A stretch of DNA of 64,000 bases from a phage. The position numbers and the translations under genes are program-made. The stretch lies in sequence record PZ452596.1. One strand, 5' to 3'. Positions 11,864-64,000 of this stretch are shown here, piece by piece (position 1 is the stretch's first letter; each line of letters starts with the position of its first letter). The notes under the pieces were generated by a model. It was not told the origin of the DNA. It searched no databases and was given only the letters and a program-made list of their open reading frames with translations.

Positions 11864-12301
11864 TTAGCTTACACGAACATTAATCACTGCGCTGCGAGGA
11901 ACTACAGAGTACTCTCCAGCATGAACTACGTTCAGAAGTTCAACACCATCTTCAATCCACTGATCAGTCACCCATCCACCCACAGGATTCGCGAATGGAC
12001 GACGAATATAAACTGCCTTACACAGCAGATCAGTTGGATCTTCAGGTTTTTCAATTTCTGTCAATAGACTAAAATCTTTTTCATAAATAATAAGCGATGA
12101 TACCATTCCATAATAGTTTCTAATTTCAATATACATCATACCGATAAGAATTCCGCTATTAACACTAATAACAGTAAAAGGATATCCGCCAGTTAAACCA
12201 AGAAGTTCACAAAACTTATTATGAGCTGTATTAGACAGTACCGAAAAATTCTTAATTTCATCAAATTTTTTCAATTGATAAACAGCATTATTTTTAATCA
12301 T
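11864..12301 (-). CDS. hypothetical protein 145 aa, paralog family member
   Basis: C-terminal ..DQWIEDGVELLNVVHAGEYSVVP shared with neighbours. Confidence 0.6.
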   Translation of the reverse strand: MIKNNAVYQLKKFDEIKNFSVLSNTAHNKFCELLGLTGGYPFTVISVNSGILIGMMYIEIRNYYGMVSSLIIYEKDFSLLTEIEKPEDPTDLLCKAVYIRRPFANPVGGWVTDQWIEDGVELLNVVHAGEYSVVPRSAVINVRVS

Positions 12302-17399: not shown

Positions 17400-18019
17400 T
17401 CAACTACCTCAATATCATAAACTTTAAATGTTCCAAATGAATCGTGTAATTTTTCTTTTGAAATAGAAGTTATTCTATACTTTCCAATTGGAATCATCCA
17501 TTCTTGTTCACGCACAATCATCATTAAGTTGTCAGTACGCTCTGAATCTAGCCCATCAGTATCTTCATACGTGTACTTAAACTCAGTATTAGGAGAAGAA
17601 AGTATAATATCGCTGATATGGTCAGAATAATTAAAAGCTTTATCAGTTTTTAAGCGAAATATTATTTCAGTGAAATACTCAACATAAGAAAAACCACATG
17701 CTGTGTGCAAACTAGTAGTAAATGAATCTACCCTGTTCGTTGAAAACACTTCTCCAACTTGTAAATCTTTAATGAGTTCTTTTGTCGATTTTGATATACC
17801 ACGATATAACTGATAAGGTGATTTAGTTAAATGCTTTTTAATGATTTTATTCAACTGCCTATGAAGAGCTTCATTCTTTTTGGCTTCCATACATTGCCAA
17901 AGAACGGATTGTTCAAAGTCAGTAAATTTTTCACAGACTTTTTTATACATATCATATTGAAAATCAACGCTTTCAGCTTTTATAGATAACTGTTCAACAT
18001 CTTCAAGATTAATAATCAT
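17396..18019 (-). CDS. modB: ADP-ribosyltransferase ModB, 207 aa
   Basis: LYRGIS, FSTN, EQEWMIP motifs; 207 aa; ACGGAGG RBS; early promoter upstream. Confidence 0.75.
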   Translation of the reverse strand: MIINLEDVEQLSIKAESVDFQYDMYKKVCEKFTDFEQSVLWQCMEAKKNEALHRQLNKIIKKHLTKSPYQLYRGISKSTKELIKDLQVGEVFSTNRVDSFTTSLHTACGFSYVEYFTEIIFRLKTDKAFNYSDHISDIILSSPNTEFKYTYEDTDGLDSERTDNLMMIVREQEWMIPIGKYRITSISKEKLHDSFGTFKVYDIEVVE

Positions 18020-20224: not shown

Positions 20225-20482
20225 TTAACCACCGACACCTGGTGTCGGTGTAACAGTCCAAAGACCTTCATTAGCAGTGATCCATTCAGTACGCTGATTT
20301 TCTTCATATACTGTAGAATATGCTGCTTTTTCAGAAGGGAATGTCTGATAATGAGCACCAGAAATTTTGTGAACATCAGAATAAAGAGGGAAAGCTACAG
20401 AAATTTCTTTACCCTGAATTGTACCACCATCAACTGCTTGGTCAAATGTTTTGATATTAACATAACCGCGAGTACTAGCCAT
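20225..20482 (-). CDS. soc: small outer capsid protein Soc, 85 aa
   Basis: MASTRGYVNIKTF...EISVAFPLYSDVHKISGAHYQTFPSEKAAYSTVYEEN; exact late promoter TATAAATA upstream; terminator downstream. Confidence 0.85.
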   Translation of the reverse strand: MASTRGYVNIKTFDQAVDGGTIQGKEISVAFPLYSDVHKISGAHYQTFPSEKAAYSTVYEENQRTEWITANEGLWTVTPTPGVGG

Positions 20483-20512
20483 GTAATTCTCCTTTTATTT
20501 AAATTACATGAT

Positions 20513-20520
20513 TATTTATA
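20513..20520 (-). promoter_or_regulatory. late promoter core TATAAATA upstream of soc
   Basis: Exact TATAAATA on minus strand ~30 nt before soc ATG, followed by AAGGAG RBS. Confidence 0.7.
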
Positions 20521-20550
20521 ATAAATTCTCGCGGCTTTTAAGACGAGCTG

Positions 20551-21069
20551 TTAATAACCTCGGTCTTGACGAGCAAAGTTTTCAGCATTTTTCAGATAAT
20601 AAAGTTTAAAGATTTCTTCTGCTGTAAGACCAAGACCTTGGAACATGTTCAGAACGAAATGGAGAATATCAATCATTTCAAATTTAATTTCCAATTGGTC
20701 TTGTGGAGACAAATCAGTAATCAAAGTTTCACGGCGTTCACCATGCTGCGACTTCCAAGGTTTCCATACAGCAGATGCATCTTTTTCACCATTGCTCATA
20801 CCACCAAGAGAAGTCAGAAGTTCGCGGAATTCATCATCAATATAATCTTTCTGATTGCGTAGCCAATCAACAACTTCACCTGCAGTAGCCAAATCATCAG
20901 GATGACGGTTATATTCAGGTTTATCTTTAGCTAAACGAACCTGTAGAGATTTCTGCATATCAAGCATAACCTGCAGCGGGTCTTTTTCGTCACCGAGAAT
21001 ATCCCAATATTCATTTTGAGCTTTATCAGCGCCTTCAATCAGTTGTGAGCATTCATTAAAGTAAGCCAT
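20551..21069 (-). CDS. 56: dCTPase/dCTP pyrophosphatase, 172 aa
   Basis: Internal ATG at 21069 with AAGGAAAAATA RBS; MAYFNECSQLIEGADKAQNEYWDILGDEKDPLQVMLDMQ... Confidence 0.9.
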   Translation of the reverse strand: MAYFNECSQLIEGADKAQNEYWDILGDEKDPLQVMLDMQKSLQVRLAKDKPEYNRHPDDLATAGEVVDWLRNQKDYIDDEFRELLTSLGGMSNGEKDASAVWKPWKSQHGERRETLITDLSPQDQLEIKFEMIDILHFVLNMFQGLGLTAEEIFKLYYLKNAENFARQDRGY

Positions 21070-21140
21070 TATTTTTCCTTTCAATTCGTGGGTTAGTAGA
21101 TCAATTATACAATAAATATATAAAGCAATAAGGAGGACAT

Positions 21141-21341
21141 ATGGTACAAAAATTAATGGCACTTGTTAATGCCATCAAAGGTAATAAAAAGCGTATAGCT
21201 TTTACTATTTCTGCTATGGTAGGAATTTTACTCTGGAACTTTATTTTATCACCAATTGCAATTGCGCATGGTGTTAATATTCCAGTAGTTACTCTTGATA
21301 CATTTGTAGATTTAGCATTTGCTTTAGTTGGGTTAATTTAA
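21141..21341 (+). CDS. small two-helix membrane protein, 66 aa, on the opposite strand
   Basis: AGGAGG 4 nt before ATG; MVQKLMALVNAIKGNKKRIAFTISAMVGILLWNFILSPIAIAHG...; stop overlaps stop of gene 61. Confidence 0.5.
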   Translation: MVQKLMALVNAIKGNKKRIAFTISAMVGILLWNFILSPIAIAHGVNIPVVTLDTFVDLAFALVGLI

Positions 21342-22366
21342 ATCTTAGCATATTTAGATAACCGCATTTTAGCCATTAACCCCTGGGCAATATTATTTTT
21401 CATATATTCCATAATTTGTTCAGGGGTTGCACCTTCCTTTCTAATCATATCATTAACATCTTTTGATTTCCAGGGAGATTTATCCCAAAACATAACCCTT
21501 TCTCCTGCATCAACTAATTTAGTCATTCGTTTAATAGTGTCAGGGTGACGAGGTTCATTATCTAAAACCCACACACGTCTATCTTTAAATGGAACAACTT
21601 CTAGGTCTAATTGACCACCTGTAATAGCTATACCATTTTCAATAAAAAGTGAATCTATAGGTCCTTCTAGAACATATACATCACCATCTTTAACTCGTTC
21701 GACTCCATAGATTTTTGTTGCTTCAGGATAAGCTTTGATAGTGATATATTTTTGGGGAGCATCTTTCTTTAATGCACGTCCTTGAAAAGACTCGGCTTTT
21801 CCATTAGCATTATAAATTGGAATAACAAGACGAGGCTCAGGTATTTCCTTTTTATATGTTCCCGGTGCTATGCTATTAACTAATTTAGGCCATTCAGTTG
21901 TAAACCAAAGATATTTCCATTTATCCTTTGGAATACAACGAGCTTTTACATATTTTATAATTGCATGGTCTTCCTCCAGTTTATCTAATCGAACACATGA
22001 CGGAAGAGATTTAATTATTTTCTTCTCAGGTTGTTTAGGAAGTTCTTTAGGTTTTTCTACTGGACGACTTTTACCTTTTTCTTTTCTTATTTCAAAGATA
22101 TACTCACGATATAAATCAGGTTCAAACTCCTTTAAATATATTCCGATTGGTGCATGATAGTTACAGTTATAACAATGAATATTTCCTTCATTATTATCAC
22201 CATAATACCATCCACGAGCTTTATTCTGGTCGGTTTTTGAATCTCCACAAACAGGGCATCTAAACCGCAATTTAAAAGTTGAACTATTATTTACTTGTGT
22301 GAATTTAGGTAAATGAGCCAATGCACGATACGCAAACTCATTATCAATCCAAGGTATTGATGACAT
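21338..22366 (-). CDS. 61: DNA primase, 342 aa
   Basis: MSSIPWIDNEFAYRALAHLPKF...CPVCGDSK...CYNCNYH (zinc ribbon) plus TOPRIM region. Confidence 0.95.
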   Translation of the reverse strand: MSSIPWIDNEFAYRALAHLPKFTQVNNSSTFKLRFRCPVCGDSKTDQNKARGWYYGDNNEGNIHCYNCNYHAPIGIYLKEFEPDLYREYIFEIRKEKGKSRPVEKPKELPKQPEKKIIKSLPSCVRLDKLEEDHAIIKYVKARCIPKDKWKYLWFTTEWPKLVNSIAPGTYKKEIPEPRLVIPIYNANGKAESFQGRALKKDAPQKYITIKAYPEATKIYGVERVKDGDVYVLEGPIDSLFIENGIAITGGQLDLEVVPFKDRRVWVLDNEPRHPDTIKRMTKLVDAGERVMFWDKSPWKSKDVNDMIRKEGATPEQIMEYMKNNIAQGLMAKMRLSKYAKI

Positions 22367-22368
22367 TT

Positions 22369-22533
22369 TTACTCTTCTTTTTCTTTAGATTCCTCTTTTT
22401 TCTTTTTAGGAATCTGTTCAGGACCTTTATTTACTACAGCACCTGATGTTGTTCCAGTAGAGATATTTTCAGGATTACCACCTGAATCTCCAGCAACCAT
22501 ATCTTCTTTAATAAATTCTTTATATGTTTTCAT
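22369..22533 (-). CDS. hypothetical hydrophilic protein, 54 aa
   Basis: ATG at 22533 with AGAGGTTAAT RBS (copy of repeat upstream); below ORF-track cutoff. Confidence 0.4.
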   Translation of the reverse strand: MKTYKEFIKEDMVAGDSGGNPENISTGTTSGAVVNKGPEQIPKKKKEESKEKEE

Positions 22534-44105: not shown

Positions 44106-44135
44106 ATCAATTCCTCAAAGGTAATTCATATGTTA

Positions 44136-44165
44136 ATAATACCACGGTTTGAACTTGTTGTAAAC
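44136..44165 (-). promoter_or_regulatory. T4-type early promoter after nrdH terminator
   Basis: GTTTACaacaagttcaaaccgtggTATTAT. Confidence 0.55.
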
Positions 44166-44246
44166 AACTTTGTGAAAAATATTTTAGGGAATGACAAGAA
44201 GGGAACGATAGCTTAGAATGGTAATATACAGAATGCGAGAAAGAAA

Positions 44247-55246: not shown

Positions 55247-56215
55247 TTATTTCAGAAGAGTAACCTCAGCGATTTCTTCCCAACCGTTTTTGTCGGTCAT
55301 AATAAAGTCAGCAAGATAAAGAGCAGTACGCAGTGAAACATTGCGTAAACGATTAACATTGACTTTCATCCATGATAATGCTTTATAAGTTTCTTCATCA
55401 GAAAGACCGCGCTTTTGCATCATGTCAGTTGAAAGAATAACATCTTCAACCCTGACCATAATTTCTTCATTAGTGTGAACACCCAAATCCAAATAAACCG
55501 AGCGGGACACTAATGCTTGTAAATGTGGAGCAAGTTTAGTACCACGGTCTAATTCGCGGTCAATGTCAACGTTTGTGATAAAAACAATCGTTCCTTTAAA
55601 TTCAAACTCACGCTCAATGCCTTTTTCTTCTAAGTAAGAAGATGCAGTGCTCCAGCAGACTTTACGGGTCTCTCCAGTGTCCAGAGCAGCTTTCAGAAGA
55701 TTAAGAATGTCCATATCAGAGAAAACATCCACATCGTCAATCAAAAGGACAGAATTCTCTTCACGATTATTCCAAAGCTGCTCATAAAGACCAATACCAG
55801 AGATTTTACCATTAATACTTTTATATTCAATGTATCCAACATCATTTGCTTTATTTAAAGCTTTATCTAAAGAATATGTTTTACCTATACCTGCCGCACC
55901 AGAGATAATTAATGAACGAATGTTTCCGTTAATAATACCATTCGTCATCATTCCCATAACATTAAATCTTTTATTAATGCGGGTTTTCATATCTTCATAT
56001 GATTCTTTAACTTCTTCAACTTTTACACCATCATATGAAATGTCTGATTTGTAAACCCAAACACCGCGACGTTTACCGTCAATTTCAACAAAAACTTTAC
56101 CATCTCCTTGTGCATCTACCGGAGCATTATCCGGGAACCATTCGCCTAAGAGCTCAAAAGTTCCAGAGATTTCTTTACCGAAGTAGATACCCTTATTGAT
56201 AGTTACAGTTTTCAT
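55247..56215 (-). CDS. AAA+ family ATPase with N-terminal beta-rich domain, 322 aa
   Basis: Internal ATG at 56215 with TTTGGAGAATAAA leader; Walker A GAAGIGKTY, Walker B VLLIDDVD, sensor-1 IVFITN. Confidence 0.65.
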   Translation of the reverse strand: MKTVTINKGIYFGKEISGTFELLGEWFPDNAPVDAQGDGKVFVEIDGKRRGVWVYKSDISYDGVKVEEVKESYEDMKTRINKRFNVMGMMTNGIINGNIRSLIISGAAGIGKTYSLDKALNKANDVGYIEYKSINGKISGIGLYEQLWNNREENSVLLIDDVDVFSDMDILNLLKAALDTGETRKVCWSTASSYLEEKGIEREFEFKGTIVFITNVDIDRELDRGTKLAPHLQALVSRSVYLDLGVHTNEEIMVRVEDVILSTDMMQKRGLSDEETYKALSWMKVNVNRLRNVSLRTALYLADFIMTDKNGWEEIAEVTLLK

Positions 56216-56252
56216 TTTATTCTCCAAATCTGTATCAGTAGTTGATAGTTGT

Positions 56253-56282
56253 ATAGTACCATAAAGCTTTATGCTTGTAAAC
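56253..56282 (-). promoter_or_regulatory. T4-type early promoter driving the AAA+ ATPase gene
   Basis: GTTTACaagcataaagctttatggTACTAT located between NTase terminator and ATPase ATG. Confidence 0.55.
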
Positions 56283-56312
56283 AACTTTGTGAAAAATTTT
56301 TGAAATAAAAAA

Positions 56313-56330
56313 GGGAGCCCGAAGGCTCCC
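56313..56330 (-). terminator. intrinsic terminator after NTase gene (UUCG loop, U-run)
   Basis: gggagcc-cgaa-ggctccc followed by UUUUUUAUUU on minus strand, then an early promoter. Confidence 0.65.
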
Positions 56331-56332
56331 TA

Positions 56333-57346
56333 TCATTTATAATAACTTCGATGGTTTTCAAGATAGACCTTCTCAAGGAAGTCATCCCAGAAACTCATGT
56401 CTACTTTTTGCTGCATACCGTTCTTAGAAGCTTCAGTAGATGCTGCTTCTACTTGATCGACCACATCTTCCAAAAACTCTTGAACTGTTTTAAATGGATG
56501 CTTACCCAACTTCACGTCGAGAATAAATGGAGCGTCTTGAAGTGGATAAACCAAGTCGCCAGTTTTGTAAATTTCCAATAGTTGAAGTCCACCACGACAG
56601 GCATGGCTCAGAGCTTTCCAGTCAATGCCTTCGTTGGCTTCGGCCTTACGAGCGCGTTCACCATATTCAGCATCTAATTTGTTCAGTGACTGCTTAAGCT
56701 CAATAAGAGAAAGAGTTGTCTGATATTTACGACCCAACACAGTGTAGAACGTTTGTGGGCCTGTTTTCTCATGATTATGGAACACCCATTCACAGAATTC
56801 GTTTTCTGGAAGACGATGCTTAATATCTTCAACTTTAGTGCGACGCTGCTTAATAGAACCATCTTCTTGGTAATCAACCCATTGCTCAGGGATTTGATTA
56901 ACTACTTTCAATACATCGCGTAATGCAGCCAAACGAGAACCCTTGACACCGTATTTAGAAGCTTGCTTGCGAACATATCCTAAATAGGATTTCATGTTAG
57001 TCGTATAAAAACGAGAACGGTTGTCTTGAATAAACTTCCACACATCAGGCAAATCAGATTTAACCACTAGTTCAGGTGGAGTGTGAAGCATATCCAATGC
57101 TACAGTTTCACCATCTGCTGCTAATTTAAAGAAATATTTAAGACTGTATAGTTCATGGTCAATATCATCTTTAGTGTTTTTAGATGATGTGTTGTTAGTG
57201 TTTTTACTCATATGCTCTTTAACATTTCCGATAAGAATATCGCGAGCAGGAGGAACAAAAATTTCTTTAAAATCTACATCAGATTCTGGGGTAGAAGTTC
57301 CATAAAGATGACTACCAAAATAGCTTTTCATTACTGTTTTCATCAT
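56333..57346 (-). CDS. predicted nucleotidyltransferase (Pol-beta-like NTase fold) with ~250-aa helical C-terminal region, 337 aa
   Basis: N-terminal YFGSHLYGTSTPESDVDF (GS...DxD) then ...DGETVALDML; ATGA overlap with upstream membrane gene; hairpin plus U-run terminator downstream. Confidence 0.6.
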   Translation of the reverse strand: MMKTVMKSYFGSHLYGTSTPESDVDFKEIFVPPARDILIGNVKEHMSKNTNNTSSKNTKDDIDHELYSLKYFFKLAADGETVALDMLHTPPELVVKSDLPDVWKFIQDNRSRFYTTNMKSYLGYVRKQASKYGVKGSRLAALRDVLKVVNQIPEQWVDYQEDGSIKQRRTKVEDIKHRLPENEFCEWVFHNHEKTGPQTFYTVLGRKYQTTLSLIELKQSLNKLDAEYGERARKAEANEGIDWKALSHACRGGLQLLEIYKTGDLVYPLQDAPFILDVKLGKHPFKTVQEFLEDVVDQVEAASTEASKNGMQQKVDMSFWDDFLEKVYLENHRSYYK

Positions 57347-57804
57347 TCAGCCTTATATTCAATAACAGGACACACTTTAGCTTTACGAGCCTTTAAAAAT
57401 TCAACGATAATCGATTTCTTGGGTTGAATAGGAGGTAAACCTTTATACGCTCTATCAATATTTTCTACGTGTAAAGCATAATCCTTTTTCCATTTATAAT
57501 CTTTATATTTTTCACGCAAATGTGCAGGAATAACAAATGAACCGATAATAAGTAAAACAACCAAAAGCGCAAGTATAAATGCCGATGGAAGAAGAGTCCA
57601 TAAACTACCGAAAATAAGCCAACGTTGTAGGCTTTCTGCACAAATAATTGTTAGCCCTACGAGTATAGTACATCCAAAAATAGAAACGAAAAATGTAGGA
57701 ATGGCAATAGACCAAAAATATGCGCATAGTGTCTTAGGTCGTTGCCATTCATCGTTAAACAATTTGAATAATTTATAATGCCAAGAGTTTTCATTAATAA
57801 TCAT
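57343..57804 (-). CDS. membrane protein with two TM helices, 153 aa
   Basis: AAAGGATAATT RBS; TM segments AYFWSIAIPTFFVSIFGCTILVGLTIICA and WLIFGSLWTLLPSAFILALLVVLLIIGSFVIP; basic C-terminal tail. Confidence 0.6.
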   Translation of the reverse strand: MIINENSWHYKLFKLFNDEWQRPKTLCAYFWSIAIPTFFVSIFGCTILVGLTIICAESLQRWLIFGSLWTLLPSAFILALLVVLLIIGSFVIPAHLREKYKDYKWKKDYALHVENIDRAYKGLPPIQPKKSIIVEFLKARKAKVCPVIEYKAE

Positions 57805-57806
57805 AA

Positions 57807-58328
57807 TTATCCTTTCATTGAAGGCGTAACAGTTGTTAAATACTTAATCATAGCTTCAGCTTCTGATTTTGATAATGAAATTTCTCCATTGTTTTGACGA
57901 ATAGAAATAAAATCCGGATGACGGTCACCACCAGCTTTTAAAACACACATATAAGTATCAACTTCGCCTTCAATATTTGAAATGATTGAAGCAGTTCCAC
58001 ATGAATGTGGTTTTTGATAAATCAATACAGCTTTTCTTCCGCCATTTGACTGCTCATAGGCTTTTAATACATCAAGCAAATCAGTTCTTTTATCAATAGC
58101 TAAAATGTTATTTTCATCTTCAATGTTAAATCCTTCGGATACTTCATAAAGTGTCACCCATAAATCGCCAATATCAATAACAGCATTTACGTTTCCACGG
58201 CTTTCAAGAGCATGACAAATTTTCTTGATTTCGTCATAACTCATTTTAATAATATCATCTCCTTGAATAAGAAAGATGTCATTTTTAAATTCAACACGAA
58301 TTAAACCACTTCCACTTGAAATAAACAT
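57807..58328 (-). CDS. hypothetical protein 173 aa, built from two internal repeats; paralog of next gene
   Basis: GTGAGGAAAT RBS; C-terminus ...KSEAEAMIKYLTTVTPSMKG matches ...KDEAIALKTYLDSVIPTMISK. Confidence 0.6.
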   Translation of the reverse strand: MFISSGSGLIRVEFKNDIFLIQGDDIIKMSYDEIKKICHALESRGNVNAVIDIGDLWVTLYEVSEGFNIEDENNILAIDKRTDLLDVLKAYEQSNGGRKAVLIYQKPHSCGTASIISNIEGEVDTYMCVLKAGGDRHPDFISIRQNNGEISLSKSEAEAMIKYLTTVTPSMKG

Positions 58329-58334
58329 ATTTCC

Positions 58335-58877
58335 TCACTTTGAAATCATAGTTGGAATGACAGAATCAAGATAAGTCTTTAGCGCAATAGCTTCGTCTTT
58401 GGTAAATGTGACAATATGCGCTCGAGAATCATCAATTTGGCGAACAAGTACGACATCGCCATCTTCATAAGAAGTCTTGACATCCAAAGTCGTAGTATAA
58501 TTTGCAGCTACTGGATTAATAATGTTAGCGCCGCGGTCTTTAGCCCATTGAAGTTTAGCCTTTTCGGATGTTTCGACTGTTTCAGATTCCAAGAATTCTT
58601 TCACCTTGACAACGAATGTTGCCCAATTGTTGATAGAAAGACACATAAATTCAGTTTCAATATTACCGCCGTAAAGGCCACGATAAAAACGAACTTGGAG
58701 GTCGTCTGTAATATTAGTTACACCGGTAACTCCTGAGGGAGCATAAGATAAAATCGCAGCCAGTTCCATAGGAAGAATAGTAATACTATCGTCTTCCTGC
58801 GTCAGAACGTATACATTACCACGTTTTTCGATAACCAGGTCACCGAACAAATCAGTTGTTTCAATTACAGCTTTCAT
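58335..58877 (-). CDS. hypothetical protein 180 aa, internal repeats; paralog of previous
   Basis: First ATG at 58877 (track start is TTG); repeat DLVIEKRGNVYVLTQEDDSITILPMELAAIL vs DVVLVRQIDDSRAHIVTFTKDEAIALKTYL. Confidence 0.6.
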   Translation of the reverse strand: MKAVIETTDLFGDLVIEKRGNVYVLTQEDDSITILPMELAAILSYAPSGVTGVTNITDDLQVRFYRGLYGGNIETEFMCLSINNWATFVVKVKEFLESETVETSEKAKLQWAKDRGANIINPVAANYTTTLDVKTSYEDGDVVLVRQIDDSRAHIVTFTKDEAIALKTYLDSVIPTMISK

Positions 58878-58878
58878 A

Positions 58879-59064
58879 TTATTTACCAATTAAAGTTTCA
58901 ATATAAGAATCAAGATTTACTTTAGCTTCTTCCATAAGAGTTTTGTATTTAATCTTGTTAGCATGTCCGGAGAAAGCTGATTCATCAATAACTGTTGCTG
59001 TATGAACAGCTTTGCTATATGTTTCAATTAATTCTCTTAATTTAAAAGCCTGCTCACTTGTCAT
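58879..59064 (-). CDS. small acidic helical protein 61 aa; member of a 6-gene family
   Basis: ATG at 59064 with AGAGGAGTATGTG RBS; MTSEQAFKLRELIETYSKAV... Confidence 0.5.
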   Translation of the reverse strand: MTSEQAFKLRELIETYSKAVHTATVIDESAFSGHANKIKYKTLMEEAKVNLDSYIETLIGK

Positions 59065-59196
59065 CACATACTCCTCTGAATCATATCAATAATGTTGTTC
59101 ACCAGATTATAAGTAAACATTGGGTAATTATATTGAATCATCACATACACAACAAACAAAACTTTCATTCTCTTCTCCTTGGCAGCTGACAAGATT

Positions 59197-59226
59197 ACTA
59201 TACCATAACCTTGCCAACTTGTAAAC
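59197..59226 (-). promoter_or_regulatory. T4-type early promoter heading the operon ending with the NTase gene
   Basis: GTTTACaagttggcaaggttatggTATAGT. Confidence 0.55.
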
Positions 59227-59228
59227 CA

Positions 59229-59402
59229 TTAAATGATGTTTTCAATAAAATTCTGAAGCTTTGTGTGAGCATCAACCATGATTTTCAATTCTTCTTTAGC
59301 GAAAGCTGTACCTCTTTCCCGAGAAGAACACTCATAGTCAGAAACTGCATTAGCATATTCTTCAATTAGTTTCATTAAAAACATCTGCTTTTCAGTTTTC
59401 AT
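59229..59402 (-). CDS. small acidic helical protein 57 aa; family member
   Basis: MKTEKQMFLMKLIEEYANAVSDYECSS...; start overlaps stop of upstream paralog; below ORF-track cutoff. Confidence 0.45.
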   Translation of the reverse strand: MKTEKQMFLMKLIEEYANAVSDYECSSRERGTAFAKEELKIMVDAHTKLQNFIENII

Positions 59403-59586
59403 TATTCCACCTAATCATTTCAAGATATTGAACTAACTTAGCTTTAGATTTATCCAAATCCTTTTTAGCTGCTTCTATACCGTCGTATGAATATCCTTCA
59501 CAATGCTCAACTGCTAATTGATATGAATCTATTTCAACATCACGTGCTAATTTAATGATTTTTTCAAACTGTTCACATGTTAGCAT
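59392..59586 (-). CDS. small acidic helical protein 64 aa; family member
   Basis: MLTCEQFEKIIKLARDVEIDSYQLAVEHCEGY...; GAGAG RBS. Confidence 0.5.
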   Translation of the reverse strand: MLTCEQFEKIIKLARDVEIDSYQLAVEHCEGYSYDGIEAAKKDLDKSKAKLVQYLEMIRWNNEN

Positions 59587-59588
59587 AC

Positions 59589-59792
59589 TTAAACTCTCGT
59601 ATTATGATCGATAATTTCATCAAGAAACATATCTAACGCTTCTATAGCATTATCAACTTTAGCTTCAAGTTCATCAATACCTTTATTTGCAATGCCTGAC
59701 GAAAACCAAGCAAAGTCACTAAGTTCCTCGTCTGCTTTACGAATTAAAGCTACTAATTCCTTAATTTTATCCGCTTGTTCGATACTAATCAT
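59589..59792 (-). CDS. small acidic helical protein 67 aa; family member
   Basis: Internal ATG at 59792; [29 protein letters not shown]... Confidence 0.5.
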   Translation of the reverse strand: MISIEQADKIKELVALIRKADEELSDFAWFSSGIANKGIDELEAKVDNAIEALDMFLDEIIDHNTRV

Positions 59793-59980
59793 TATTCCAC
59801 CACATATGAAAGAGAGAATATTGCACACGCCATGTGAGTTGCAACTTCATCACACATATTATAACGTTTCTTAAGAAGTTCTACAAGTTCTTCACTAGTA
59901 ACTTCATCCATGTCGACGAAAAAATCACCATTAATGATGACGTAAATATTTCCTTCTTGATTGAGTGCTTCAATTTTCAT
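59792..59980 (-). CDS. hypothetical protein 62 aa
   Basis: Internal ATG at 59980 with AAGAGGAGAACATC RBS and early promoter upstream. Confidence 0.45.
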
Positions 59981-60008
59981 GATGTTCTCCTCTTTATCCG
60001 ATAGTTGT

Positions 60009-60038
60009 ATAGTATCACAGCTCAAACGGAAAGTAAAC
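60009..60038 (-). promoter_or_regulatory. T4-type early promoter after rI.1 terminator
   Basis: GTTTACtttccgtttgagctgtgaTACTAT. Confidence 0.55.
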
Positions 60039-60053
60039 CGGTAAAATGAAAAA

Positions 60054-60071
60054 AGTCTCCCGAAGGAGACT
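60054..60071 (-). terminator. intrinsic terminator after rI.1
   Basis: agtctcc-cgaa-ggagact followed by UUUUUUCAUUUUA. Confidence 0.6.
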
Positions 60072-60075
60072 AATG

Positions 60076-60462
60076 TTATTCGAGGGAAAGAAGATACTTA
60101 CTCTGGTAAAACATCCCAGTAATATCATCTATCGTGCTTTGAATGGCTGGAGGCATTTCTTTATAAATGCTGTTAGATTGGTCTAGTATGCGATCAATCA
60201 TTTTAATTGTGTCGGTAGGAAGTTTACTGGCATCTGGAATTGAAGGTGTGTATTTTCTACCAGAATACCCCAAATATTGCTCACCAAATTTATCAATCAA
60301 ATCTGGTAACTCGGAGAAAATAAAATCGTATGCTTTGTGTCTAGCATAACTTTTAGTTTCAAAATGTGCAGAATGAAAATAAGCTTGTGCAGCCATTAAT
60401 AAACCTAAGTATTCATCTGCCTTTGAAGGTTTTCCACTTTGTGAAAAGTCGCTGAATTTCAT
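60076..60462 (-). CDS. hypothetical protein 128 aa (rI.1 position)
   Basis: ATGA overlap with rI stop; terminator hairpin downstream. Confidence 0.6.
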
Positions 60463-60752
60463 TCAGTCTCCAATTTAATGTTCATAATTCTAGCGTATGA
60501 TTGTGCCATCTCCGCGCCTCGTTCTATACATTCAAAATCAGAAGAGCACGGGTCATTTTTATAGGTCGTTCTCATAAAACTATAGAATTGTTCAGACGAT
60601 TCTACGCTTTTATTTTCAAAAAGCATATAAACGTGCCTAATACCAGATTCCATAAATTTATCAAAATGAGGATCGACATTCGCTTCAATTGGTGGAGATA
60701 AAGCAAATGACAATCCTAGCATGGCAAATAGTGCCGTTGCTTTTAAGGCCAT
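60459..60752 (-). CDS. rI: lysis inhibition regulator RI, 97 aa
   Basis: MALKATALFAMLGLSFALSPPIEANVDPHFDKFMESGIRHVYMLFENKS... (signal-anchor plus periplasmic domain); TAGGAGG RBS. Confidence 0.85.
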   Translation of the reverse strand: MALKATALFAMLGLSFALSPPIEANVDPHFDKFMESGIRHVYMLFENKSVESSEQFYSFMRTTYKNDPCSSDFECIERGAEMAQSYARIMNIKLETE

Positions 60753-60764
60753 AAAGGCCTCCTA

Positions 60765-60977
60765 TCATTTTTGTCCTGTATTTACTTTATGCCGATGCAC
60801 GGCCTTAACTTTATCAAGGTATTTTTCAAAATTTCGCAATCTAGTATAGTCTGCCGGAGATTGGTTGAGTGATACTTCTCGACGCAAAGCTGAAATGATA
60901 TTTCCAACTTCCCTACGAATTTCATCTAATTGAAGAACAGTAAGATTGCGAAGTTGCTTTTCAGTTAATTGTAGCAT
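60765..60977 (-). CDS. hypothetical protein 70 aa (rI.-1 position)
   Basis: ATG at 60977 with AAAGGGGTATAT RBS; exact late promoter upstream. Confidence 0.6.
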
Positions 60978-61002
60978 ATATACCCCTTTAGTTAGATAAA
61001 CC

Positions 61003-61010
61003 TATTTATA
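61003..61010 (-). promoter_or_regulatory. late promoter core TATAAATA upstream of rI.-1/rI
   Basis: Exact TATAAATA on minus strand ~26 nt before the rI.-1 ATG. Confidence 0.6.
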
Positions 61011-61019
61011 ACTTTTGCA

Positions 61020-61601
61020 CTAACCGAGCTTTTTAGTTAATTCATTCCAATGTTTTCTACACAAAGAAACATAAATTTCATCGCCAATACAGATTTGATT
61101 ACCCTCTTTAACTGGTGTTCCATCTTCCATTAATCGAGCTGTCATAATCGCTTTTTTACCACAGTGACAAACTGCTTTTAGTTCAATAAGTTTATCTGCA
61201 ATCGCCAAAAGTTCTTTAGAACCTTCAAATAATTTTCCAGCGAAATCAGTCCTTAATCCATAAGCCATAACAGGAACATTATATGTATCAACAATTCGGC
61301 TCAATTGATGCACTTGTTCAGTTTTTAAAAACTGAGCTTCATCTACAAATACACAATGAATATCTTTTTGTGCTTCAGCCCATTTATAGAACTCGAAAAT
61401 ATCCATATCATCTGTAATAATATTCGCTTCCTGCTTAATTCCAATGCGAGAAACGACTTCACAGACAGAATCGCGAGTATCAATAGCAGGCTTAAGAACT
61501 AATACGCTCATTCCACGTTCTTTATAATTATGTGCAGCAGTCAAAAGAGAAGCAGATTTTCCAGCATTCATTGCTGCATAAGTAAAAATTAAACTCGCCA
61601 T
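61020..61601 (-). CDS. tk: thymidine kinase, 193 aa
   Basis: MASLIFTYAAMNAGKSASLLTAAHNYKERGMSVLVLKPAIDTRD... (P-loop); C-terminal Cys cluster. Confidence 0.9.
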   Translation of the reverse strand: MASLIFTYAAMNAGKSASLLTAAHNYKERGMSVLVLKPAIDTRDSVCEVVSRIGIKQEANIITDDMDIFEFYKWAEAQKDIHCVFVDEAQFLKTEQVHQLSRIVDTYNVPVMAYGLRTDFAGKLFEGSKELLAIADKLIELKAVCHCGKKAIMTARLMEDGTPVKEGNQICIGDEIYVSLCRKHWNELTKKLG

Positions 61602-61602
61602 C

Positions 61603-61791
61603 TTAGTCCTTAGTTAAATTTTCTAAATATGTTTCTAAATCATTTTCAGCTTTATCGATAGATTTTACTAATTCGTAATATGTTTCGGCATCTCCATAAT
61701 CAGAAGATAATTCAAAAGACAAATCCTTTTCTAAACTAATAATTTCACCAACTAAAAATAATATTTCGTTCTTTTGTTCGCGAGTAATCAT
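61603..61791 (-). CDS. small acidic helical protein 62 aa; family member
   Basis: MITREQKNEILFLVGEIISLEKDL...; ATGA overlap with upstream paralog. Confidence 0.5.
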   Translation of the reverse strand: MITREQKNEILFLVGEIISLEKDLSFELSSDYGDAETYYELVKSIDKAENDLETYLENLTKD

Positions 61792-61973
61792 AAGGAATTT
61801 ATATAATTAATAAGTTCTTGTTCTTTATTATCGAATTCTTTAGAAAGTTCTTCGTACTCGTTTGCATTAAAAGGACCGCATTCATCACAAACTTTTTCCA
61901 ATTCACTGTTTTTATCCATAACTTCGTGGATAAGAGAAAAGAGTTTGTCTTTTTGTTCTTTGCTTAGGCTCAT
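61788..61973 (-). CDS. small acidic helical protein 61 aa; family member
   Basis: MSLSKEQKDKLFSLIHEVMDKNSELEKV... Confidence 0.5.
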   Translation of the reverse strand: MSLSKEQKDKLFSLIHEVMDKNSELEKVCDECGPFNANEYEELSKEFDNKEQELINYINSL

Positions 61974-62143
61974 ATATTAATTTCCAGAAGTTTTAAAATA
62001 ATTCGCTTTTGCTTAAATATTTCAATAGTTAAATGATCAGTATCTTTTTGACCAATTCCAATGGCAAAACCTTTATTAGCAGCGAGTTCAATTAAATTAT
62101 CAAGTTCACGTAACACTTCGTACTGTAACTCATAACTATTCAT
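61970..62143 (-). CDS. hypothetical protein 57 aa
   Basis: ATG at 62143; ATGA overlaps at both ends; below ORF-track cutoff. Confidence 0.35.
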   Translation of the reverse strand: MNSYELQYEVLRELDNLIELAANKGFAIGIGQKDTDHLTIEIFKQKRIILKLLEINI

Positions 62144-62352
62144 TTCGGTTTACCTTCTTTAACGAAATCTGGATAAGGATAAAATCCCGAATAAAATCCT
62201 TCACCTTTATGATTGATGCATCCTTTATTAGAACAATAGCACCAATAATCGAAATCACAAGCCATTTCATCGTTGCATAAAGCAAAAACAACCGGCCACT
62301 TACACTTTTCGCAGTGGGCATTTTTAAGAATACTAGTTTGGCTCATAACCAT
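62140..62352 (-). CDS. Cys-rich small protein ~70 aa (probable metal-binding)
   Basis: ATG at 62352 with AAAGGTTAC RBS; HCEKCKW...CNDEMACDFDYWCYCSNKGC. Confidence 0.5.
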   Translation of the reverse strand: MVMSQTSILKNAHCEKCKWPVVFALCNDEMACDFDYWCYCSNKGCINHKGEGFYSGFYPYPDFVKEGKPK

Positions 62353-62555
62353 GTAACCTTTAAGCAATATTCTTCTACATGTTGTTTACGACCTTTCTTA
62401 TCAATAAAGGTATATTCAACGAATGTTCCAATGTAGTCTTTATCTACATCATGTGGACTATTAATTGGACATTTAGTACGGCAAATGCGTTCCCATTGAC
62501 GAATAATTACTGCCTTATTCTTTGGGTCATACGGATGTGGATAATGTATATTCAT
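62343..62555 (-). CDS. hypothetical protein ~70 aa
   Basis: ATG at 62555, ATGA overlap with macro-domain gene stop. Confidence 0.45.
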   Translation of the reverse strand: MNIHYPHPYDPKNKAVIIRQWERICRTKCPINSPHDVDKDYIGTFVEYTFIDKKGRKQHVEEYCLKVTWL

Positions 62556-63019
62556 AATAACGGTTCCCAATCAACAATCACAATTTCTAATTTAGAAGAA
62601 TATGTATCTAAAATCCCCTCAATAATATCCCAGTTCCCTTTACCTATGCCTGCACCAATCCTAGGCATATAGATTGTGGGTTTAATCAGTTTATTTTCAC
62701 CAAACTCATTTAATTCTAACATACAATTCATTAAAGCGGAATACTCAAAATTTGGCCCTGGTTGAAATTGAGTATAAAGGTTGAAGCAATACGCTTTATG
62801 AGTCCTAAAGTATTTTTCATAGACTGAGTAAGAACCGAGTTTAGTTACATCACCCCATTCAGTCTGTAATTTATCAGCTTCCAAAATTTTAGGGAAAGCT
62901 TTGGTTAATTGACCCGCTACGCCTGAACCCATAGTATGAAAACAATTGCATCCATGCGCAATATTTTTACCTTCAGCGAAAAGGGCGACAATATCGCCCT
63001 TGATATATTTTACAATCAT
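62552..63019 (-). CDS. macro-domain (ADP-ribose binding/processing) protein, 155 aa
   Basis: GDIVALFAEGKNIAHGCNCFHTMGSGVAGQL and TIYMPRIGAGIGKGNW match macro-domain signature blocks; ATGA overlap with upstream gene. Confidence 0.6.
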   Translation of the reverse strand: MIVKYIKGDIVALFAEGKNIAHGCNCFHTMGSGVAGQLTKAFPKILEADKLQTEWGDVTKLGSYSVYEKYFRTHKAYCFNLYTQFQPGPNFEYSALMNCMLELNEFGENKLIKPTIYMPRIGAGIGKGNWDIIEGILDTYSSKLEIVIVDWEPLL

Positions 63020-63363
63020 CTAGTACTCAATCCTCGATTATAAGAATCTACCAAACGGTCAACCATTGAATGACAAGCGGCTTTATCTTTCTCCTCCGCA
63101 ACTGAGCATTCTAAGGTATTCCACTTTTTAGCATATCGTTTTAATAATGTATCGTTTTTGTATCTGCTTGATTTATCTCTTTCTCCGTCTTTATATGCAT
63201 ATATTAATTTCTGTGCAAATTCAGCTTGGCATGCTTTATTTTTCCCACAATAATCTGCCGCAGTGCGGTTTACATATTCTCTAATTTCAGTATATGATGT
63301 ATCTGCTGATGCAGAAGCAGAAAATGAAATTAATCCTATACATAAAACCAAAATTTTAGTCAT
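63016..63363 (-). CDS. secreted protein 115 aa (signal peptide)
   Basis: MTKILVLCIGLISFSASASADT...; four Cys. Confidence 0.55.
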   Translation of the reverse strand: MTKILVLCIGLISFSASASADTSYTEIREYVNRTAADYCGKNKACQAEFAQKLIYAYKDGERDKSSRYKNDTLLKRYAKKWNTLECSVAEEKDKAACHSMVDRLVDSYNRGLSTR

Positions 63364-63901
63364 TTACTATTTCCAAAAGTTTATTATTTTTAAGGTAATT
63401 AGCCTTTTCTAGGACTTCAGAAGCATATTTAGAACCTGCTTTAACATTCCATCCCGAATTATAAGAGGATATTGCTTTTCTTATATCGCCCTTATGTATA
63501 TTTAACCAATAAGAAAGTTCAATGTACGCCCAGGAAGCTGAATTGGATCGTTTATTCAACATTCTTTTTATTTCAGCATCAGTCATATTATAACCAAGTT
63601 CCTTAACTCTCGCTCGCATAGTAGGCAAATAATTTTGGAACATTCCATAAGCGTGATGCTTTGGTTTAGATTTTAAATTAACTCCGCCAGAGCTTTCTTG
63701 CCATAAAATGGCTGCCATTATATGACCTAATCCGCTCTTGTGGATATTTTTATGTGTTTTATATTTTCCATCCTTAGAAAATTGTTCCCCGAATTGATAC
63801 GCGTAACGCATGTTATCGAGTTGGACATTACTGAAAGTATGCTCGGAGCTATGTGCCATCATTGAAATGGCCAATAGACCAGCGAGTAGTGCTTTTCTCA
63901 T
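63356..63901 (-). CDS. secreted lytic transglycosylase-like protein (SLT domain), 181 aa
   Basis: Signal peptide MRKALLAGLLAISMMAHS; AAILWQESSGG...HHAYGMFQNYLPTM...SYNSGWNVKAGSKYASEV resemble SLT catalytic region; GAGGTAAGC RBS. Confidence 0.6.
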   Translation of the reverse strand: MRKALLAGLLAISMMAHSSEHTFSNVQLDNMRYAYQFGEQFSKDGKYKTHKNIHKSGLGHIMAAILWQESSGGVNLKSKPKHHAYGMFQNYLPTMRARVKELGYNMTDAEIKRMLNKRSNSASWAYIELSYWLNIHKGDIRKAISSYNSGWNVKAGSKYASEVLEKANYLKNNKLLEIVND

Positions 63902-63908
63902 GCTTACC

Positions 63909-64000
63909 TCATTGAGTTTTAATTACTGCTTTAGAAGCCTTTCCTGGTAAACGACGACTGTTAATAATTGCCATCCTACATTGAAGTGACGGGTCTTTGA
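63909..64000 (-). CDS. 3' end of an unidentified gene whose start lies beyond the window end
   Basis: Frame open from window edge to TGA at 63909-63911 (...RMAIINSRRLPGKASKAVIKTQ*). Confidence 0.35.
   Translation of the reverse strand, partial: KDPSLQCRMAIINSRRLPGKASKAVIKTQ

Follow-up and report, generated by a model that had tools for sequence, protein, structure and literature searches.

Between gene 56 (dCTPase/dUTPase) and gene 61 (DNA primase) of a T4-like phage lies an open reading frame (ORF) of 66 codons that is oriented against both neighbours, and it raises the question whether such a short, opposite-strand ORF is a gene at all and, if so, when it would be expressed and what its product might do in the infected cell. 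The window, i.e. the whole stretch of 64,000 nucleotides that was analysed, is phage RB27 with a rotated origin, with 100% identity to NC_025448 at positions 20500-22400 and 56000-64000. Window coordinates differ from those of NC_025448 by 4713 as far as 29.4 kb at least and by 4714 from 56 kb onwards, and the window therefore carries one extra base relative to that record, somewhere between about 29400 and 56000.

Results

A plus-strand ORF convergent on the primase gene

The ORF and its immediate surroundings comprise the following elements.

20552 to 21070, minus strand: gene 56 (dCTPase/dUTPase), with its start at 21070, the neighbour on one side of the ORF
21130 to 21136, plus strand: Shine-Dalgarno (SD) sequence AAGGAGG, read directly, followed by a 4-nt spacer (ACAT) and the ATG
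21141 to 21341, plus strand: coding sequence of 66 aa (RB27_032, 'dam.1', PHROG 2024), from the sequence, the ORF translation and an HMM match
21338 to 22366, minus strand: gene 61 (DNA primase), with its end at 21338, convergent with the ORF

An earlier note on this DNA, made from the letters alone, had pointed to a 66-aa plus-strand ORF with AGGAGG placed 4 nt before its ATG and with a stop shared with that of gene 61, and all of this is borne out: the ORF is present, the SD and its spacer read as listed, and within TTTAAA the ORF stop TAA (21339-21341) overlaps the gene 61 stop TAA (21340-21338). The gap between genes 56 and 61, given there as 268 bp, exists and is mostly filled by the ORF, but measures 267 bp (21070 to 21338). 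Likewise, the statement that every other gene lies on the minus strand largely stands, the exception being a second plus-strand ORF, 55.7, that is annotated in RB27. This ORF, a doubtful gene candidate (RB27_074; 28 aa, window positions 44130-44216, plus strand), has neither a good SD nor the late-promoter motif ATAAATA upstream, and the further plus-strand ORFs that survived greedy ORF selection in the 64-kb window resemble antisense artefacts.

Distribution among relatives

The GenBank record of RB27 already carries the ORF as RB27_032, a 'hypothetical protein' with the note 'dam.1', and in RB32 and RB51 it bears the name RB32ORF030w. A tblastn search with the window protein matched 693 phage records, in 687 of which the ORF is intact and essentially full length, and the use of a Gaprivervirus homologue as query raised the total to 915 records. 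T4 has an intact ORF of identical length, encoding a 97% identical protein, at 17738-17938 on the plus strand, inside the 309-bp gap between dam and gene 61; within this gap the T4 reference record NC_000866 has no annotation, and no NCBI accession in the protein collection searched corresponds to the exact T4 protein sequence. The gene is thus already known, in that it is annotated in RB27 and in hundreds of relatives, while missing from the T4 reference. A literature search on this ORF found no publication, and on this basis two features appear to be new, both described below: the conserved late-promoter motif on the opposite strand and the remote hairpin link to the holin family PF11351.

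The same locus and orientation, that is, the plus strand between 56 or dam and the 3' end of 61, was found in at least eight genera of the Tevenvirinae, the ORF being convergent on the primase gene in Tequatrovirus, Mosigvirus, Gaprivervirus, Dhakavirus, Jiaodavirus, Kanagawavirus, Gelderlandvirus and Moonvirus. The comparison of the 56-61 interval among related phages that had been proposed as a check thus finds the ORF conserved, in the same place and on the same strand, and the suggestion that it might be a lineage-specific replacement of dam or gene 69 has to be abandoned, because T4 itself has the ORF beside dam, and in phages Lutter and fPS-65 the small gene coexists with gene 56, dam and a 186-aa ORF. 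RB27 (window positions 20482-21141) differs from T4 in having no dam between 56 and the small ORF and no segF between soc and 56, whereas T4 possesses both, dam on the 56 side of the small ORF and segF between soc and 56; as to dam, RB27 is simply without it. The remark that T4 has other genes near this position is accurate for dam, which lies between 56 and 61; gene 69 is the old name of segF, which lies on the opposite side of gene 56. In phage DK-13, a homing endonuclease gene sits between the small ORF and gene 61 (L007:1872-2621). Since dam, the 186-aa ORF and the homing endonuclease come and go, the 56-61 interval is plastic and the small gene is its constant element. Two IMG/VR Gaprivervirus contigs (L015:1495-1901 and L016:1495-1901) carry two diverged tandem copies, 8 nt apart, one of the T4 type and one of the Dhakavirus type, each with its own SD.

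Selection on the encoded protein

The substitution pattern is that of a protein-coding gene. RB27 and T4 differ in the ORF by six synonymous and two non-synonymous changes, dN/dS is 0.09-0.43 in close pairs, and between genera the synonymous sites are saturated, yet protein identity is 50-55% at a length of 65-66 aa. Variable sites fall on codon positions 1, 2 and 3 in the proportions 26/7/36 (within three genera; third-position excess p about 1e-3), and the remaining plus-strand frames are closed by many stops. A minus-strand gene in the gap was considered and rejected: the one open antisense frame is without a start codon upstream of 21162, and its variation of 7/26/36 is a non-coding pattern. 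Intactness in 687 of 693 records, combined with a coding-type substitution pattern, places the ORF beyond chance, and dN/dS, the codon-position pattern, the closed frames and the tandem copies with their SDs make a non-coding explanation very unlikely. Judged by these comparisons, the ORF is a real gene under purifying selection at the protein level, and its earlier listing as a candidate plus-strand gene can be upgraded accordingly.

A conserved late-promoter motif on the opposite strand

As the surrounding genes are early or middle genes of the minus strand, a plus-strand gene needs a promoter of its own, and the following elements were read around the ORF and, for the ATAAATA heptamer that forms the core of TATAAATA, in the whole window.

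21111 to 21118, plus strand: T4-type late-promoter motif AATAAATA, the A(-13) variant of TATAAATA, with a predicted start near 21124
12083, 21112 and 23091, plus strand: copies of ATAAATA, of which 21112 precedes the 66-aa ORF
20519, 47693 and 61009, minus strand: copies of ATAAATA upstream of soc, 49 and rI.1-rI
21104 to 21128, minus strand: middle-promoter-like site of gene 56, with MotA box TTGCTTTA at 21128 to 21121, an 11-nt spacer and TATAAT at 21109 to 21104, from a reverse-complement reading
21143 to 21178, minus strand: terminator-like hairpin TTGATGGCATT-AACA-AGTGCCATTAA followed by TTTTTGT, from a scan, inside codons 1-13 of the ORF

The late-promoter core NATAAATA is found 20-30 nt before the ATG in all ten of the ten representatives compared, from six genera, while the other upstream sequence is unalignable; exact TATAAATA is present in Dhakavirus and in one Kanagawavirus, and a GGAGG or GGAG SD is preserved in all homologues. 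In RB27, a TATAAATA-type -10 element as known from T4 late units thus stands at a suitable distance from the ORF, 22-30 nt ahead of the ATG, and it is both rare in the window and conserved. The record of phage Lutter marks the 8-mer AATAAATA as a promoter. The three minus-strand copies of the heptamer precede soc, gene 49 and rI.1-rI, which are expressed late in T4; these genes likewise have a TATAAATA-type motif 20-35 nt before their SD and ATG within the early region, but they share the strand of their early neighbours, whereas the 66-aa gene is on the opposite strand and convergent on 61. With three copies on each strand and six in total in 64 kb, the scarcity of ATAAATA looks like strong avoidance. 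Behind the plus-strand copies at 12083 and 23091 there is no convincing ORF, and these might start late antisense RNAs.

In a list of 50 late promoters of T4, nine have an A at -13 and others deviate at a single position (PMC2988020). Among T4-like phages, position -13 was found to be poorly conserved (Nolan et al., PMC1524935). Late transcripts of T4 can have either polarity (Geiduschek and Kassavetis, PMC2988020), both strands are transcribed at several sites at different times (PMC2988020), and 22 of 150 transcription start sites mapped by dRNA-seq in T4 were antisense (preprint 10.1101/2024.04.04.588121). From the conserved promoter motif we infer, with good support, that the ORF is transcribed late; a literature search found no transcript, ribosome-profiling or proteomic evidence for it. 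On the plus strand, no intrinsic terminator was found in the 3 kb beyond the ORF, so that the late RNA would be expected to continue into gene 61 in antisense orientation.

Two minus-strand elements overlap or adjoin the gene. The terminator-like hairpin at 21143-21178, which is annotated as a terminator in fPS-65, is probably the terminator of gene 61. It is conserved in T4 and clearly so only within Tequatrovirus, other genera having loosely comparable hairpins, and because of this restriction it cannot account for the family-wide conservation of the N-terminal motif; the idea that 'L(V/I)NAIKG' is kept merely for the sake of the gene 61 hairpin was rejected on this ground. The second element, at 21104-21128 in the 70 bp that separate the ORF from gene 56, resembles a middle promoter by the MotA-box consensus, which is standard knowledge of T4 middle promoters. 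The plus-strand late-promoter motif falls within the spacer of this putative gene 56 promoter, so that the two are arranged back-to-back. The transcript of gene 56 serves as the primer at oriA in T4, and the origin of RB27 may therefore be served from the 21104-21128 site.

A small membrane protein with one robust transmembrane helix

With a GRAVY value of 1.25, the product is as strongly hydrophobic as had been noted, and its sequence makes it clearly a small hydrophobic membrane protein. An AlphaFold2 model (pLDDT 79) has helices at residues 2-11, 15-42 and 52-63, and Kyte-Doolittle analysis gives one robust transmembrane (TM) segment (about 19-42) in every subfamily. The C-terminal segment has a KD19 of 1.86 in the T4 type versus 0.8-1.3 elsewhere and passes the TM threshold in the T4 type only. 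Of the two membrane helices originally proposed, the first is therefore robust everywhere, whereas the second, the short helix 52-63 that is TM-like in the T4 type, is only plausible. An alignment of 29-42 relatives displays a basic N-terminus, invariant or near-invariant W32, N33 and P38, conserved A40, G44 and P48, an acidic residue at 53 and an amphipathic or hydrophobic C-terminal helix. In the window protein, the loop between the helices reads HGVNIPVV and the C-terminus ends in AFALVGLI, with no charge after D57. By the positive-inside rule the N-terminus would be cytoplasmic, and the conserved Asn in the middle of the TM segment suggests, from general knowledge of membrane proteins, helix-helix association.

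The family is narrow and extends beyond T4-like phages

The protein matches the PHROG 2024 HMM over its full length (E 1.5e-31, residues 2-66 versus profile positions 1-65 of 65), as do all 29 aligned relatives; PHROG 2024 ('dam.1', RB32ORF030w, RB27_032) is the gene's own family, from which it differs in nothing. No match for the window protein was found in Pfam or NCBIfam, nor in PADLOC for the window protein or close family members, and Foldseek against BFVD returned family members plus insignificant matches to small helices only. The name 'Holin' on the top Foldseek match was set aside, as it is an automatic label on a family member. An HMM search of 1.84 billion representative proteins yielded 21 representatives at E <= 0.001, a number that makes the family a narrow one.

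Its distant members lie on non-T4, siphovirus-like metagenomic contigs, where the gene is preceded by those for a tail-tip protein, a 94-aa TM-coiled-coil protein and endonuclease VII. At four loci (L028:4260-5210, L029:4279-5213, L115:3272-4159 and L116:3263-4153) a three-gene module 3' of a large tail gene could be delineated, consisting of a coiled-coil protein of 94-98 aa with an N-terminal TM, endonuclease VII, and the small membrane protein overlapping the end of the endonuclease VII gene. In four loci a Phage_lysozyme gene lies 1-4 kb from the distant member. Neighbours of 180 aa and 105-109 aa were considered as spanins and rejected, since they have no TM or lipobox and the one weak match was to a minor tail protein. 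At a further locus (L031:129-1383), a 59-aa member lies 17 nt upstream of a gene whose 352-aa product has a RelA/SpoT domain and matches PDC-S33, a defence candidate of PADLOC (E 2.4e-17), and this pair may be a small membrane effector combined with an alarmone-synthetase-like enzyme.

A probable relationship to part of the holin family PF11351

PF11351 (GTA_holin_3TM, 'Holin of 3 TMs') includes the holin of the Rhodobacter capsulatus gene transfer agent (GTA) and TeaA of Vibrio phage ICP1, expression of which collapses the proton-motive force (PMF) and lyses cells (PMC7182436). The window protein itself has no match to PF11351 at E <= 10 in the Pfam search. Four of 42 family members have matches to PF11351, always to its C-terminal part and all below the gathering threshold of 24.8 bits (best family member, 15.3 bits); they share no other Pfam family, and two 'holin' PHROGs are the sole annotated weak matches of family members. 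In addition, tblastn with a distant member, with a match in the same region, led to a 137-aa 'Holin of 3TMs' of phage DSL-LC05, which is a bona fide PF11351 member.

PF11351 was picked for profile testing after these weak matches to it had appeared, and the profile scores should be read with this choice in mind. Against a shallow PF11351 alignment, hhalign gave 47.6%; against a diverse one, built from 27 sequences of IMG/VR loci down to 39% identity, it gave Prob 93.5%, P 2.3e-7 and a score of 43.3 over 58 columns, family columns 17-74 being aligned with the TM2-loop-TM3 part of PF11351. Control scores were 11-12 for reversed alignments, at most 22.1 in 120 column shuffles and 9 for T4-type Imm. 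When the metagenomic intermediates were left out, the register was the same but the signal weaker, with a score of 30 and 59% for Tevenvirinae alone, and 27 and 41% for the T4 type alone. The motif spacing is identical in both, with W-N-F-x3-P in the family versus Y-Q-F-x3-P in PF11351, then hP-x-h-x-h-[DE] and a Gly-containing last helix.

On the strength of this sequence comparison, we consider it likely that the hairpin is homologous to TM2-loop-TM3 of PF11351. The RB27/T4 protein and PF11351 have in common the aromatic-polar-Phe-x3-Pro motif in the first hairpin helix and positive charges before that helix, and both are small phage-encoded membrane proteins. The differences are nevertheless considerable: the RB27/T4 protein has 66 aa versus about 137 aa, is without the N-terminal TM, the amphipathic region and the basic C-terminal tail of PF11351, and has one robust TM plus a short C-terminal hydrophobic helix in place of three TMs. 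It also does not adjoin an endolysin gene, and T4-like phages already own an unrelated holin, T. Compared with holins as a class, its size and its possession of at least one TM agree, and late expression is predicted from the conserved promoter motif; the hydrophilic charged C-terminal tail is absent, as is linkage to endolysin or spanin genes, the neighbours being genes for dCTPase and primase. Imm and other small two-TM phage proteins of T4 are of similar size and hydrophobicity and encoded in the same genome, but Imm is an early minus-strand gene product with no sequence or profile similarity to the 66-aa protein.

Discussion

Taken together, the explanation that we favour, with moderate confidence, is that the ORF is a bona fide Tevenvirinae gene, probably late, for an inner-membrane protein with a PF11351-related hairpin that would be accessory to membrane integrity or lysis timing. 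Late in infection, RNA polymerase carrying gp55 would start some 17 nt before the ATG, at the AATAAATA motif, to give a plus-strand transcript that opposes all surrounding early and middle genes, and the strong SD would drive translation of the 66-aa protein. The latter would insert in the inner membrane and keep its N-terminus, basic through K13, K16, K17 and R18, on the cytoplasmic side, with one long TM helix that bears the invariant Trp-Asn...Pro motif and leads into a short loop, and a second, short hydrophobic or amphipathic helix that either re-enters the membrane or rests on its periplasmic face. By ancestry it would be a remote homologue of TM2-loop-TM3 of PF11351 that is without the N-terminal third and the charged C-terminal tail. 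Most likely, it would self-associate or bind another membrane protein through the polar Asn within the bilayer, and thereby act as a late accessory factor for inner-membrane integrity or lysis timing beside T, the main T4 holin. The antisense run into the primase gene 61 would then be a by-product of the same late transcript. Late transcription, topology and any lysis role are what we infer in this scheme, and its elements are not equally firm: a lysis-related role in particular is tentative, and a role outside lysis, in exclusion, anti-defence or assembly, is about as likely.

The protein might be a real membrane protein with a non-lysis job, such as late superinfection exclusion, anti-defence or a tether for heads or DNA packaging, its likeness to PF11351 reflecting only the shared ancestry of a generic hairpin. 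T, E, RI, RIII and the spanins already explain lysis and lysis inhibition in T4, and in T4-like genomes the small gene lies apart from e, t and the spanin genes. On the non-T4 contigs, its immediate neighbours are the endonuclease VII gene and genes for non-membrane proteins, with no endolysin; there it forms a module with endonuclease VII, which is a packaging-related resolvase in T4, and the 94-aa TM-coiled-coil protein, and one member lies directly upstream of the RelA/SpoT-like gene that matches PDC-S33. However, the protein resembles neither Imm nor any PADLOC model, the sole family-level similarity found is to a holin family, and nothing positive speaks for any specific alternative role, so that as a complete account we regard a non-lysis function as possible but clearly less probable than the favoured one.

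A bolder version of the lysis hypothesis, and one that we think rather unlikely, supposes that T4 and its relatives possess a cryptic second gene of the holin family. Its product, a 3-TM holin reduced to two helices, would be made late from the opposite strand and would adjust the timing or inhibition of lysis, or the energised state of the membrane, for instance by making T trigger more readily or by holding it back, and the transcript would at the same time silence the primase gene by antisense.

Still less probable is that the RNA is the key product, the late promoter serving mainly to send antisense RNA across gene 61 and the upstream early genes for their late shut-off. The convergence of the ORF on gene 61 with overlapping stops, the missing plus-strand terminator within 3 kb and the transcription of both strands of T4 at several sites (PMC2988020) would all fit such a function, but it leaves unexplained the conserved SD, the fixed length, a dN/dS far below 1, the scarcity of variable sites at codon position 2 and the tandem paralogues with their SDs, and DK-13 retains the ORF despite a homing endonuclease gene between it and 61. 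RNA and protein roles are, moreover, compatible with each other, and an antisense effect could accompany the accessory membrane protein that we favour.

That the gene encodes a second, autonomous holin or pinholin of T4-like phages is very improbable. Remote homology to PF11351, small size and probable late expression, as judged from the promoter motif, as well as the name 'holin' in some database records, might suggest it. T4 t-null mutants, however, do not lyse and continue to respire, and for this reason the protein cannot be an autonomous holin or pinholin at its natural levels; in addition, the charged C-terminal tail and the endolysin linkage are absent, and the 'holin' names are automatic, most of the named cluster members examined being called 'hypothetical protein'.

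Least credible of all is an untranslated ORF whose interval is kept for regulatory DNA or RNA (the gene 61 terminator, the 56 or dam promoters, the surroundings of oriA), since, although the ORF contains or adjoins a terminator-like hairpin of the minus strand and a middle-promoter-like site, and although the T4 reference annotation omits it, frame, length and key residues are kept despite synonymous saturation between genera, the other frames are closed or startless, with the wrong codon-position pattern in the one open antisense frame, and the regulatory elements span just about 40 of the 201 nt of the ORF.

T4 is the reference system for phage lysis, lysis inhibition and the switch from early to late transcription, and because its reference record omits a gene that purifying selection maintains in hundreds of genomes from at least eight genera, omics studies keyed to the T4 annotation are likely to miss it. 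If the product is indeed a late membrane protein of holin-family ancestry, it would add a new candidate factor to lysis control or envelope physiology, and the promoter, as predicted from its motif, would be a clear example of late transcription that runs antisense into a replication gene. Should the gene have no phenotype, the outcome would be smaller, namely the addition of the ORF to the T4 annotation. In phage T4_ev240 (L119:683-808), a 1-nt deletion in the AAAAA run at codons 15-16 frameshifts the ORF, which could be a sequencing error or a tolerated loss, and, if real, the deletion would mean that the gene is dispensable in the laboratory.
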